A stretch of 64,000 nucleotides of DNA from Candidatus Woesearchaeota archaeon (GCA_964606775.1 CAZSGW010000001.1:24002-88001); one strand, 5' to 3'; positions 40,478-54,303 are shown, counted from the first letter of the stretch. The notes: generated by a model from the sequence alone, not told the origin. Numbers and translations are program-made.

Positions 40478-40663
40478 ATGAATAAAATATTAAGCGTTTT
40501 AATCGGGCTAATCCTTTTGGTAATTCCTATATATGCGTGGGTTATGAACTCGTACGGGCTAGGAAATGCTGCGATGCTTTTCCTCAAGGGAGGAATCATG
40601 TGGGGAGTTATATTAATTGGTTTAGTATTAATCCTCCTAGGATTAAATAGTCTTAGCGACTAA
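40478..40663 (+). CDS. Small two-TM membrane protein (61 aa)
   Basis: Two hydrophobic helices; weak support. Confidence 0.3.
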   Translation: MNKILSVLIGLILLVIPIYAWVMNSYGLGNAAMLFLKGGIMWGVILIGLVLILLGLNSLSD

Positions 40664-41244
40664 CTTAACGAAATTAAAATACCTTCTATAACAGCTGCAA
40701 AAATTAAAAGGGGAACAATAAATAGTACGAAGACCTTTATTGATTTTTTTAAACGTTCCAAAAATATCTTCTGATTTTTATTAAAAACACTTGCCCCAAT
40801 TCTTAAGCCTAAACCAAAGGAAACTATTATGGCGGGCAACTCAAAAATCCCGTGGGGAAAAAGTCTCCATAAGGATAATATTCCCGAAGATTGGACAGAC
40901 ATAGAAGCGACAAAGCCCAAAACATAACCATTAATAAGAGTATAAATAATAGGAAAAATTCCGAAGAAAATTCCAAAAACCATCCCAAAGAAACCACTTT
41001 TCAGATTATTAAAGAAAATAAAATTAATCAATTCTAAAGAAGACATTCCAGAAGTTTTATCCAAGAGGTCTGAAATAAACACAATGATTTGATTCAATAC
41101 AGCTTCAGGAGGAGAAATAAAAAAACCAATCAAACTCGAAAACAAAAAAAGTCCGCAGATTATCCAAATAAATTTTCTAGACTCTCGAAGATAATTCCAC
41201 GCTTCAATATACTCCTTTTTCAAATTAAATCTCTTTTTCATCAA
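40660..41244 (-). CDS. SpoIIM/DUF95-family membrane protein
   Basis: ..LFPHGIFELPAIIVSFGLGL.. is the conserved core of the stage II sporulation protein M family; 5 TM helices. Confidence 0.6.
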   Translation of the reverse strand: MMKKRFNLKKEYIEAWNYLRESRKFIWIICGLFLFSSLIGFFISPPEAVLNQIIVFISDLLDKTSGMSSLELINFIFFNNLKSGFFGMVFGIFFGIFPIIYTLINGYVLGFVASMSVQSSGILSLWRLFPHGIFELPAIIVSFGLGLRIGASVFNKNQKIFLERLKKSIKVFVLFIVPLLIFAAVIEGILISLS

Positions 41245-41921
41245 CTAAAATGTTTGCCGATTCTTTTTATTTTATTTCTATAATTATGCCTAAGATAAAT
41301 TCCATAAATCAAACCAGTAATCAAACCCCCCAAATGTGCAGTATTCCCAATAGGAATGTCTGCTGCTGCAGATATTCCCCATAAAGCCAAAAGCAACCCT
41401 GGAGCCGCATACTTCAATTTTATCGGAATTGGAACAAACATAACATAAACGGGAAGATTAGGAGTCAAAAGCATTAAAGTTCCGACCAAACCAAACAAAG
41501 CCCCCGAAGCACCAACAGCATAAGTATTCAAAGCAGAAGGATTAAAAAAATAAGTAATCAAAACAAAAAACAATCCCGCAAATAAACCAGCAATCAAATA
41601 AAAATAAAGATACCTTTTCTGTCCCAAAATTCTCTGGAGTAAACTCCCAACAAAAAACAAAGAAAGCATATTCACAAATAAATGAAAAATCATGTTCGGG
41701 CTATGCATAAACATGCTTGTTAAAAAAGTCCAGAGATATTTTCCTTGAAGAACATTTGAAGGATTCAAAGCAATATGATTAAGAGTCAAAATTTTTGTAG
41801 ACATTAAAATAAAAAAAGCAATAAAGAAGATAACATTAGCCAAAATAATCCAAGTATTTACACTCAAACTTCCAAAAATATTTCTTTTTTTCTTAGGAGA
41901 AATCTCATAACTATAATCCAT
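41241..41921 (-). CDS. Rhomboid-family intramembrane serine protease
   Basis: The GASGALFGL catalytic Ser motif and the TM6 His in NTAHLGGLITG. Confidence 0.8.
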   Translation of the reverse strand: MDYSYEISPKKKRNIFGSLSVNTWIILANVIFFIAFFILMSTKILTLNHIALNPSNVLQGKYLWTFLTSMFMHSPNMIFHLFVNMLSLFFVGSLLQRILGQKRYLYFYLIAGLFAGLFFVLITYFFNPSALNTYAVGASGALFGLVGTLMLLTPNLPVYVMFVPIPIKLKYAAPGLLLALWGISAAADIPIGNTAHLGGLITGLIYGIYLRHNYRNKIKRIGKHFS

Positions 41922-41951
41922 AAAAAACTAACATACTCTCAATTTATAAAA

Positions 41952-42707
41952 CTATTTTTTCTTCGAAGTTTTCTTCTTAGCTACTTTCTTTTTAGATGTC
42001 TCTTTCTTCGCAACTTTTTTCTTCGAAGTTTTCTTCTTAGCTACTTTCTTTTTAGATGTCTCTTTCTTCGCAACTTTTTTCTTTGTTGTCTTCTTAGCAG
42101 TAGCCTTCTTTTTAGCAGCTCTCTTATCTGCCTTTTCCTTAGCCAATTTCTTCTTTTCTTTTTCCTTAATCTTCTCCTCTTTTTCTAGTTCTTTATTAAT
42201 TTCCTCCTCAACTAAAACCAATTTCTTTTCATACTTATCCTTGTTTCTTTTTAATTCCCTTAATAATTTGGCATTATCCTTTAAAGTAAAAACATCTCCA
42301 CATTCAGAACAAAGAAAATTCTGTAATAAAGCATTATCTTCGTTGAATTCAATCCCGCACCTCTCACAAACATAAAATTGTTTAGTTTCTCTATTACTTA
42401 TCTGTTGATTAAAGATATTTAGTCTTTTAATTAAAATTTCTTTCAAATACTCTAATGCTTTTAGCTTTTCTATTTTCCAAAAATAAGTATACCACCCTTT
42501 CTTTTTATCTTTCTTCCTTATCGAAGAAACTAAACCCTGGTCAGAAAATTTATACAAAAGATTCCTTATCTGGTTTATAGTCATATCGGTTTTTTTTGCA
42601 AGTATAAATTCGTTAACATGTTTCTTAGAATTAAGCAAATCTGCCATCGGTTCCGCGGGCTTTCCAGCGACGTCGACAACCACCTCTTTAAGAAACTCAT
42701 CAATCAT
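41952..42707 (-). CDS. tfe: Transcription factor E alpha (TFE/TFIIE-alpha homolog) with a Lys-rich repeat tail
   Basis: Winged helix ..INQIRNLLYKFSDQGLVSSIRKKDKKKGWYTYFWKI..; zinc ribbon CERCG..CSECG; a C-terminal 80 aa of (KKKVAKKETSKKKVAKKKTS)n. The start is placed at the internal MIDEF; the upstream 68 codons in the ORF track look non-coding. Confidence 0.6.
   Translation of the reverse strand: MIDEFLKEVVVDVAGKPAEPMADLLNSKKHVNEFILAKKTDMTINQIRNLLYKFSDQGLVSSIRKKDKKKGWYTYFWKIEKLKALEYLKEILIKRLNIFNQQISNRETKQFYVCERCGIEFNEDNALLQNFLCSECGDVFTLKDNAKLLRELKRNKDKYEKKLVLVEEEINKELEKEEKIKEKEKKKLAKEKADKRAAKKKATAKKTTKKKVAKKETSKKKVAKKKTSKKKVAKKETSKKKVAKKKTSKKK
41961..42080. repeat. Perfect 60-bp tandem duplication (2 copies, plus a diverged third) encoding the Lys-rich tail of TFE
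   Basis: 41961..42020 and 42021..42080 are identical: cttcgaagttttcttcttagctactttctttttagatgtctctttcttcgcaactttttt. Confidence 0.9.
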
Positions 42708-42830
42708 AACTGATATAAAAAAGATTATTATTAAATACCTTTCGGTCAGACATTTTCGAATAAACTCCCTGAGACAATAAAAAAAAACATTTTTAAACCT
42801 ATATTCTATCATATATATAATAAAAAAGAG

Positions 42831-43391
42831 ATGTTCAAACATACAATGGGTTTGTTTAATAAAAAAAAGAAGGTGAAAAAAATTTCTATGTCTGAAAACG
42901 AAGTTCCCCAATTACCTAGATTAGATCTTCCAAAATTTAAAGAGCCAATTCATCAATTACCTCAACTACCTTCAAACTCAGTAGGAGAAAGATTTTCTCA
43001 GAACTCTATAAAAGAAAGTGTTGCTGGGGGAAAAGAGGATGAGTTGGAAGAGGAAGATTTCGAGCAAATAAGTAGTCCTCTTTCAGCTCCAAGAGGGATT
43101 ACTGAAGAAATATCGGAACCTCCAGCAATAAGAACGCCTACAAGAACAACTAACTCAAGAACTAAATCTCCAAAAGAACCAATATTTGTTAGAATTGACA
43201 AATTCGAGGAAGGCTTAGAAATATTTGAAAAATCACGAGATAAAATTCACGAGATGGAAAAAATACTTCAAGACATAAAAAAACTTAAAGACGAAGAACA
43301 AAAAGAAATAGAAATGTGGGAACAAGAAATATCTACAATGAAAAGTCAGATTGAAAAAGTAGATAAAGATATTTTTTCTAGAATAAAATGA
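42831..43391 (+). CDS. Hypothetical protein with Pro/Thr-rich disordered middle region and C-terminal coiled coil (186 aa)
   Basis: ORF divergent from tfe. Confidence 0.4.
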   Translation: MFKHTMGLFNKKKKVKKISMSENEVPQLPRLDLPKFKEPIHQLPQLPSNSVGERFSQNSIKESVAGGKEDELEEEDFEQISSPLSAPRGITEEISEPPAIRTPTRTTNSRTKSPKEPIFVRIDKFEEGLEIFEKSRDKIHEMEKILQDIKKLKDEEQKEIEMWEQEISTMKSQIEKVDKDIFSRIK

Positions 43392-43744
43392 CTGAAAATC
43401 TTCATGTAAGAGTAGAATACGAAGAACTATACAACTCAAAAAAAGACGTTCTAATATTGCAAGCAAGTATTTTAAGAGGATTGCAAAATTTAAAGAAATA
43501 CAAAGAGTCAAGAGCAACAGAACTAAAAAAGAAAAATAATCTTCTAAGAAACCTCAAATCAGTAAAAAGTAATTTCACAAAATTAAAACAAACACTTCCA
43601 AAAGTTGAAGAACCAAAAAGTTCAAAGGAAGAAGATAAAGAGCTTCCAAAACTTCCAAGAAACAAAACAAAAGATAAAGAGCAAAATAAGATTGAATCAG
43701 AATTAGAAAAAATACAAAAGAAACTTAGGCAACTAGGCGGCTAA
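43388..43744 (+). CDS. Coiled-coil hypothetical protein (118 aa), translationally coupled (ATGA overlap) to the preceding ORF
   Basis: Heptad-rich K/E sequence. Confidence 0.4.
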   Translation: MTENLHVRVEYEELYNSKKDVLILQASILRGLQNLKKYKESRATELKKKNNLLRNLKSVKSNFTKLKQTLPKVEEPKSSKEEDKELPKLPRNKTKDKEQNKIESELEKIQKKLRQLGG

Positions 43745-53730: not shown

Positions 53731-54303
53731 CTATTTCCCTTTACGTTTTCCAGCTCTCACAGAAGGACGATTTTTATTCTCAGAACTTTTACTTCTCAAT
53801 CCACGAGATTTTCTTCCAGAAGAAGTTTTACCTTTCAAAGTTCTCTTTTTATTAGCACCATTTCCAATCCAAGAAAAACTTTTGTCATTCTTTATTTCAG
53901 GTCTTTGAGGATCAACACAAATTACCTCATAGAAATAATTCATTCCATCTTTTCCAATATTGTAAGAATTAAGAACTTCCAAATTCTTAAACTTATTCTG
54001 AACTCTATTTTCGGCAATCCACTTATAAGACATCTTCAAATTCTTTCTAGTATGCATTCTCTTACTTCTTCTTCCCTTATTCGGCCTCGGACGTCTATGC
54101 CCCCCTCTCTTAACTCTAACTCTAATTACAACAAATCCTTTTTTATCTTTATAACCCAAAGCTCTCGCTCTATCTAATCTTAAAGGTTTATCAACTCGAG
54201 TAAAAACGCCAGATTTTCTCCATTCAATCATCCGATTCCTCAAAGTTTCCTTATCTGGTTTTTTCCATGCTTGCTTAATGTAATTATACAATCCTTTTAC
54301 CAT
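53731..54303 (-). CDS. rpl15e: Ribosomal protein L15e
   Basis: MVKGLYNYIKQAWKKP..VRVKRGGHRRPRPNKGRR matches the universal L15e signature. Confidence 0.9.
   Translation of the reverse strand: MVKGLYNYIKQAWKKPDKETLRNRMIEWRKSGVFTRVDKPLRLDRARALGYKDKKGFVVIRVRVKRGGHRRPRPNKGRRSKRMHTRKNLKMSYKWIAENRVQNKFKNLEVLNSYNIGKDGMNYFYEVICVDPQRPEIKNDKSFSWIGNGANKKRTLKGKTSSGRKSRGLRSKSSENKNRPSVRAGKRKGK

Follow-up and report, generated by a model that had tools for sequence, protein, structure and literature searches.

The gene at positions 41952..42707 (minus strand) of the window, i.e. the whole 64,000-nt stretch of a Candidatus Woesearchaeota archaeon contig that was analysed (GCA_964606775.1 CAZSGW010000001.1:24002-88001), encodes TFE-alpha, the single-subunit basal initiation factor of this DPANN archaeon of the Pacearchaeota/Woesearchaeota/Nanoarchaeota group. 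TFE/TFIIE helps all archaeal and eukaryotic polymerases to open promoters, and DPANN archaea have very reduced genomes. Our main reading, to which we assign a probability of roughly 0.6, is that the protein is a divergent TFE-alpha with a lineage-typical, composition-constrained and duplication-driven extension in two parts, and that the Lys-rich tail ending this extension would act as a non-specific electrostatic DNA tether.

The identity of the core was supported by both sequence and structure comparisons. Pfam TFIIE_alpha (PF02002) matched aa 5-99 (4e-15, 56 bits versus a cut-off of 22.9), and the NCBIfam TFE models PRK06266 and TIGR00373 aligned over aa 3-165 (1e-29 and 2e-27, respectively). 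The latter two models scored below their equivalog cut-offs (103 versus 180 bits and 95.8 versus 149.5 bits), suggesting that this is a divergent TFE orthologue and explaining the "hypothetical protein" labels in NCBI records; the missed cut-offs are compatible with the Pfam and structural results. Among PDB sequences, the best hits were Pyrococcus/Thermococcus TFE structures (6pln at 6e-19 and 6kf4 at 1e-18, as well as 6kf9), and in the phmmer alignment to 6pln the LY, GWY and YxW motifs were conserved.

An AF2 model built from a 56-sequence alignment (mean pLDDT 90.9) comprised an extended winged helix (aa 1-80, 42468..42707, minus strand; pLDDT 97-98) that includes the clamp-binding GWYTYFW wing with W72 and Y75, a linker helix alpha-5 (aa 81-108, 42384..42467, minus strand; assigned by DSSP on the model), a zinc ribbon (aa 111-140, 42288..42377, minus strand) whose sequence holds C114, C117, C133 and C136, a helix spanning aa 146-222, and an end of low confidence. 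Foldseek placed T. kodakarensis TFE-alpha on top (6kf4_G, E=1.8e-10, target-normalised TM 0.77 over 162 aligned columns), followed by yeast and human TFIIE-alpha within PICs, and the comparison with the Pfu TFE-alpha eWH (6pln_B) gave a target-normalised TM of 0.88 at an rmsd of 1.7. The helices at aa 81-108 and from aa 146 onward flank the zinc ribbon, as expected for the TFE-alpha helical linker bundle, and a linker helix corresponding to aa 81-108 is present in Pfu/Tko TFE-alpha (PMC7704642). The canonical part of the post-ribbon helix (aa 146-165, 42213..42272, minus strand) was delimited by the start of the AF2 helix and by the end of the PRK06266 alignment at aa 165, which is also where the region common to ordinary TFE-alpha ends.

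Across alignment A1, G71, W72 and Y52 as well as the ribbon residues C114, C133 and C136 were invariant and Y73, Y75 and W77 nearly so, while a CxxC-x(8-30)-CxxC pattern was matched by 77/77 orthologues. The clamp-contacting patch of the T. kodakarensis protein (Y55, F65, W75 and Y78) is represented here by Y52, W72 and Y75, with Ile63 at the Phe position; in the Thermococcus model, the wing Trp of TFE-alpha stacks on the -9 non-template base (PMC7704642). The winged helix plus zinc ribbon TFE core proposed in the first-pass annotation was thus recovered by Pfam, the NCBIfam alignments, the PDB matches and AF2/Foldseek alike.

The open reading frame runs from an ATG at 42707 to a TAA at 41952-41954 and comprises 251 codons plus the stop. 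Stop codons are present on the strand opposite the 60-bp repeat described below, indicating that coding is on the minus strand. At 42728..42745 (minus strand), 20-37 nt 5′ of the ATG, lie a BRE-like CGAAA and, after it, a TATA box (TATTTAATAA), and CGAAA recurs at -35 to -38 from the TFE start codon in 61/68 orthologues. We infer the BRE and TATA assignments from archaeal promoter architecture, and the mRNA would probably be leaderless or carry a short leader. The longest mechanical ORF, a 319-aa frame with a TTG start, was rejected in favour of the ATG at 42707 on the basis of the homologue starts (the homologues share the TFE start residue and begin with MI/LxxFL) and of the BRE/TATA spacing. 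The 286-aa NCBI model (P0001) was rejected on the same basis; both frames begin 5′ of this ATG and read through the promoter (42708-42911). Conservation of the promoter DNA accounts for the same over-extended start (MEYRFKN...) in P0007, an orthologue of 71% identity. The long-tailed TFEs are mostly annotated as "hypothetical" in NCBI records, and some of the annotated starts lie too far 5′, so that the reading frame includes the promoter. Rfam and tRNA scans returned nothing that overlaps the TFE locus.

The gene resides within a strongly conserved five-gene block (window 40660-43744), the arrangement of which was found by tblastn in 63-75 of 80 species genomes (L001-L080). On the same strand, 3′ of TFE, lie a SpoIIM-like gene (40660-41241, minus) and a rhomboid protease gene (41241-41921, minus), and the two divergent-gene proteins of the block had no match to a Pfam or NCBIfam family. 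An RSTTTAAAAA element is located approximately 82 nt 5′ of the TFE start in 60/68 orthologues. In the present locus, an element of this type (AGGTTTAAAAA, 42790-42800, minus strand) lies approximately 92 nt upstream, in the intergenic region between TFE and the divergent gene, and it is embedded in a block of roughly 35 nt that different species have conserved; this element could serve as the TATA/BRE of the divergent gene or as the site of a regulator. This divergent gene is listed from an ATG at 42831 (MFKHTMGLF...), but its orthologues keep an ATGGG (MGLF...) equivalent to 42846, with a ATATATATAA box about 25-33 nt 5′ of that equivalent start, so that the shorter, leaderless start looks more likely.

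Beyond the canonical TFE core the protein continues for another 86 aa (166-251), in two parts of different character. The proximal part (aa 166-195, 42123..42212, minus strand) is a mixed-charge E/K segment delimited by the AF2 helix and by the charge profile of the orthologues, in which a mixed-charge zone (DE 0.20-0.41) was found 31-60 aa past the ribbon. The distal part (aa 196-251, 41955..42122, minus strand), delimited by charge, AF2 disorder and orthologue composition, is acid-poor and about 54% Lys (30/56), and the tail reaches a net charge of +16 in 30 aa. In the orthologues, the distal zone likewise has KR >=0.54 and DE <=0.02, and 73/77 terminate in K or R. The model shows one unbroken helix at aa 146-222, with pLDDT >=93 up to about aa 210 and below 50 for aa 224-239 of the Lys tail. 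A predicted helix of 77 residues in a low-complexity region may be an over-prediction. The E/K segment is possibly an ER/K single-alpha-helix (SAH) spacer, which would be a long isolated helix free of a hydrophobic seam; weak heptad hydrophobics (L, V and I) are present in it.

Among the 61 ORFs of the window, the TFE tail was the sole Lys-rich polycationic stretch. The other polycationic stretch belongs to ribosomal protein L15e (53731-54303, minus strand), which is Arg-rich, as expected of an r-protein. A genome-wide low-complexity habit was rejected as the origin of the tail, only TFE and the Arg-rich L15e being polycationic among these 61 ORFs.

The distribution of the extension was examined in several sequence collections. 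A query with the full protein yielded 1710 homologues, the best 120 of which were 227-323 aa long and had Lys-rich ends in 120/120 cases. As this query included the tail, a second search of 1.84 billion cluster representatives used only the core (aa 1-165) as query, and 120 full-length core matches were analysed, with phmmer setting the core boundaries of the distant representatives. An extension of at least 40 aa was found in 90/120 of these, with K >=0.30 in 72 of those 90, and the remaining 30/120 were of canonical length (about 165-210 aa). Searching one-genome-per-species contigs revealed a relative in at least 585 genomes, and the best 80 of these (52-71% identity) were Pacearchaeota, Woesearchaeota or Nanoarchaeota MAGs. 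All complete orthologues from distinct species genomes (76/76) were tailed, over 64-168 aa and with a K fraction of 0.27-0.56. Some tailed relatives share only about 30% identity, and the named distant tail-bearing representatives are listed as "Nanoarchaeota archaeon".

The tail is thus a lineage-wide, enlarged form of the short basic tail known from other archaeal TFEs. Its description as unusual is apt in relation to model archaea but not within the lineage (76/76 orthologues and 72/120 diverse relatives), and rather than a fusion of two modules, as had been suggested, it is an in-situ expansion of the C-terminus. No description of a long Lys tail on a DPANN TFE was found in full-text literature searches, which is weak evidence of novelty as most subscription journals lie outside that coverage.

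The end of the tail is encoded by a perfect tandem duplication (aa 209-251, 41955..42083, minus strand) consisting of two 60-bp units plus a 9-nt AAGAAAAAA microhomology. Direct comparison gave 41955..42083 as the maximal extent of perfect period-60 identity (129 bp, 2.15 copies), and TRF reported the same interval with a period of 60, 2.2 copies, 100% matches and a score of 258. On the coding strand the units read GTTGCG...AAGAAAAAA, and the same 9-nt AAGAAAAAA also occurs before the array, a pattern typical of tandem duplications that are bounded by microhomology. A second TRF row (41955-42115; period 60, 2.7 copies, 91% matches, 5% indels) revealed a diverged partial third copy at 42084..42115 (minus strand), left by an older duplication and carrying a 3-nt indel, and the tail moreover contains an older 30-bp (10-aa) sub-period that is 72% matched according to TRF. 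Against this 72% background, the chance of 69 consecutive matches is about 0.72^69, or ~1e-10, so that the perfect repeat is not a mere by-product of low complexity. The diverged third copy and the decayed sub-period indicate that at least three rounds of duplication are recorded in the tail, the latest of which is unblemished and added 20 residues and about +10 net charge.

These results bear out most of what had been noted of this repeat: the exact duplication (41961..42020 equalling 42021..42080), the diverged third copy (found here to extend to about 42115), and a tail that is both polycationic and repeat-built. For a duplication without mismatches, recent expansion is the most parsimonious interpretation, and we consider the 60-bp duplication most likely to be genuine and young. 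The repeat had been said to span the C-terminal 80 residues; it is real, but the Lys-rich part is confined to aa 196-251 and the perfect part to aa 209-251.

Similar events were seen throughout the family. Eight of 142 distinct orthologue tails contained a perfect in-frame tandem repeat of their own (periods of 15-57 bp), and many more contained decayed repeats. In pairs with cores at least 95% identical, tail length differed in 19/46, and in the alignments of near-identical pairs the cores were unchanged while the tails showed in-frame indels and differences at their ends; one 90%-identity cluster harboured 11+2-aa and 13-aa in-frame tail indels while the cores were invariant. Such length differences beside near-identical cores indicate that tail length polymorphism is real in the family. 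A 45-aa tail difference between two sequences (L151 and L154) was left out of this evidence as an anchoring artefact of an internal duplication in L154. The TFE cores of this pair are 100% identical, and L154 (metagenome contig Ga0209542_10034034) carries the duplication around its zinc ribbon (KEFKKNEEKFEKKLEMVNEENAML...); this duplication could have arisen in assembly, or it could be a genuine intragenic event that lies outside the tail. Overall, the tail turns over rapidly, as segments between short AAG/AAA microhomologies are tandemly duplicated or deleted in frame.

The coding sequence and composition of the tail in turn pointed to constraint. Lys codons in the extension are AAG in 54% of cases, versus 26% in the long ORFs of the window (Fisher p=2e-4), and the AAG fraction of the tail exceeded that of the flanking ORFs in 70/76 orthologues (p=9e-13). 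This enrichment is partly gene-wide, with the core at 0.29 versus 0.20 for the flanks and the tail exceeding the core in just 47/76 (p=0.002). The longest A-run in the tail did not exceed 9 nt and was below that simulated from local codon usage in 76/76. Together, the AAG enrichment and the short A-runs suggest selection against slippery poly-A and hence for in-frame translation of the tail. At the protein level, acidic residues were nearly excluded (DE <=0.02) and Asn amounted to 2.2% despite the AT bias. The tail is kept for its composition rather than for its sequence.

The proposed function builds on the Thermococcus RNAP-TFE-alpha complex, in which the winged helix occupies the tip of the clamp coiled-coil, where the bubble has its upstream edge, the ribbon is placed on the stalk, and the two linker helices form a bundle between winged helix and ribbon (PMC7704642). 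Given this bundle, the post-ribbon helix should return in the direction of the winged helix; the course of the extension was taken from this published structure and not from the coordinates of the AF2 model. The post-ribbon helix would then simply continue (aa 146-222 in the model) before giving way to the polycation, with the E/K helix serving as a spacer and the Lys tail as a non-specific electrostatic DNA tether close to the polymerase clamp and upstream promoter DNA. DNA is proposed as the ligand from the charge of the tail and its position in the homologous complex. Such a tether could raise the local affinity of TFE for promoter DNA and stabilise the PIC and the open complex, thereby extending what the short basic tail does in other archaeal TFE-alphas.

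The tail might in addition stand in for TFE-beta, whose contacts with DNA are lysine-rich. TFE-beta is reported to be absent from DPANN (PMC7289017), and in Sulfolobus its wing lysines have been implicated in DNA contacts, charge-reversal mutants being less stimulatory (PMC4495717), which together make a compensatory role of the tail plausible; the C-terminal tail of Sso TFE-alpha is itself the TFE-beta-binding element (PMC4495717). A more far-reaching version, in which TFE-alpha acquired a rod-plus-polylysine module in a large DPANN radiation (Pacearchaeota/Woesearchaeota/Nanoarchaeota), this module takes over the DNA contacts of TFE-beta or turns TFE into a linker-histone-like promoter coat, and rapid, repeat-driven changes in tail length tune promoter opening globally between strains, seems doubtful to us. 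If true, it would represent an analogue, within the basal machinery, of a contingency locus.

It is highly improbable that the 60-bp duplication is an assembly artefact of a MAG and that the true gene has one copy or more than two. The source is indeed a MAG-type contig (152,714 bp), and arrays with at least three copies may be collapsed by De Bruijn assemblers, but the repeated segment measures 69 bp within a 129-bp array, which a k-mer of at least 70 or a single 150-nt read would span. Moreover, perfect in-frame repeats of like kind occur in eight other species assembled by different pipelines, and the duplication maintains the frame and the stop codon and has its end precisely at the 9-nt microhomology. 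To look directly for polymorphism in copy number, a second copy of the species was sought by exact-protein lookup, which was empty, and by sequence clustering, which returned a single-member cluster; the best identity was 71% among GTDB species genomes and 70% among metagenome contigs, with no same-species copy in either. The possibility that the tail is a neutral, low-complexity tract of Lys codons, lengthened and shortened by replication slippage at a tolerant C-terminus and with the 60-bp duplication as its newest neutral event, we regard as rather unlikely. It would fit with an unconserved tail sequence, with lengths of 64-168 aa between species that also vary between near-identical strains, with an AT-rich genome (31.8% GC) and a proteome of 10.8% Lys, and with the 30/120 diverse relatives that are tailless; in model archaea, furthermore, the TFE core alone supports open-complex formation (PMC7289017). 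However, drift would not be expected to hold composition and frame so tightly: 76/76 orthologues (52-71% core identity) have a tail, as do distant relatives of about 30% identity, its two-part layout is conserved among the orthologues, acidic residues and Asn are kept low in spite of the AT bias, AAG is enriched and A-runs are capped in 76/76, and no further Lys-rich tail was found among the 61 ORFs of the window.

A functional tail could also act on another ligand or in another role, such as on nascent or bulk RNA near the stalk, on polyphosphate, or in a second capacity as an abundant nucleoid-associated, linker-histone-like protein. A polycation does not discriminate between polyanions, the zinc ribbon is positioned on the Rpo4/7 stalk, which is an RNA-binding module (PMC7704642), and bacterial H1-like Lys-rich proteins of the AlgP type associate with polyphosphate granules (PMC9239181). 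We nevertheless consider this quite improbable, as the post-ribbon helix heads off the stalk towards the winged helix and DNA, the known job of TFE is DNA melting, and binding of RNA or polyP is without evidence for any TFE. A tail that would tether TFE to promoter DNA is our preferred reading.

A constrained and lineage-wide polycationic extension suggests how a minimal initiation machinery compensates, and it bears as well on the short basic tail of model TFEs, which is mentioned without a functional test in PMC7704642. It also provides a clean natural case of a disordered tail evolving by tandem duplication, with selection on charge rather than on sequence.

Compared with known systems, the closest relative is the TFE-alpha of Thermococcales (6KF4, 6KF9, 6PLN and 6XJF), with which the protein shares its family and its fold of extended winged helix, two-helix linker bundle and zinc ribbon. 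The Thermococcus/Pyrococcus proteins end in a positively charged, disordered tail of 16 residues that could not be traced in cryo-EM (PMC7704642), whereas the protein described here has a near-pure Lys-rich tail of 56 aa preceded by the 30-aa E/K helix. The whole extension amounts to 86 aa, and up to about 170-190 aa in relatives, and is built from tandem repeats. In addition, the ribbon ligands are four Cys, versus three Cys and one His in Tko. With TFE-beta/TFIIE-beta/hRPC39 we propose a functional analogy only: clustered lysines close to where the bubble begins upstream contact DNA electrostatically and stimulate open-complex formation (PMC4495717). Homology is absent, TFE-beta being a separate folded protein with WH and 4Fe-4S domains, in contrast to the disordered extension of the alpha subunit considered here.

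Composition links the tail to the histone H1 CTD, Chlamydia Hc2 and Pseudomonas AlgP, which are likewise disordered polycations rich in Lys, Ala, Ser and Thr, and Hc2 also varies in length within a species through the copy number of its Lys-rich repeat units (PMC2848022). The protein that bears the tail, however, is a basal transcription factor rather than a chromatin protein, and the GH1 globular domain is missing, the only winged helix of the protein being of the TFIIE type. Matches of the protein to H1-like models were insignificant (PF07382 HC2, E=0.65, 10.5 bits versus a cut-off of 40; NF038053 hist_H1_lk_Burk, E=0.46, 10.7 bits versus 80), and homology to H1/Hc2 was rejected on these grounds. 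The label "histone-H1-like" in the first-pass annotation therefore holds for composition but not for family membership, and the resemblance is one of convergent composition. A further parallel is offered by M. smegmatis Ku, the C-terminal, low-complexity PAKKA repeats of which are Lys-rich and modulate DNA binding (PMC3553676). As in Ku, a conserved DNA-transaction protein has a Lys-rich repeat tail in certain lineages and lacks it in others, but the host protein, the domain of life and the repeat unit all differ. Similar Lys-rich tails are found on actinobacterial HU and topoisomerase I.
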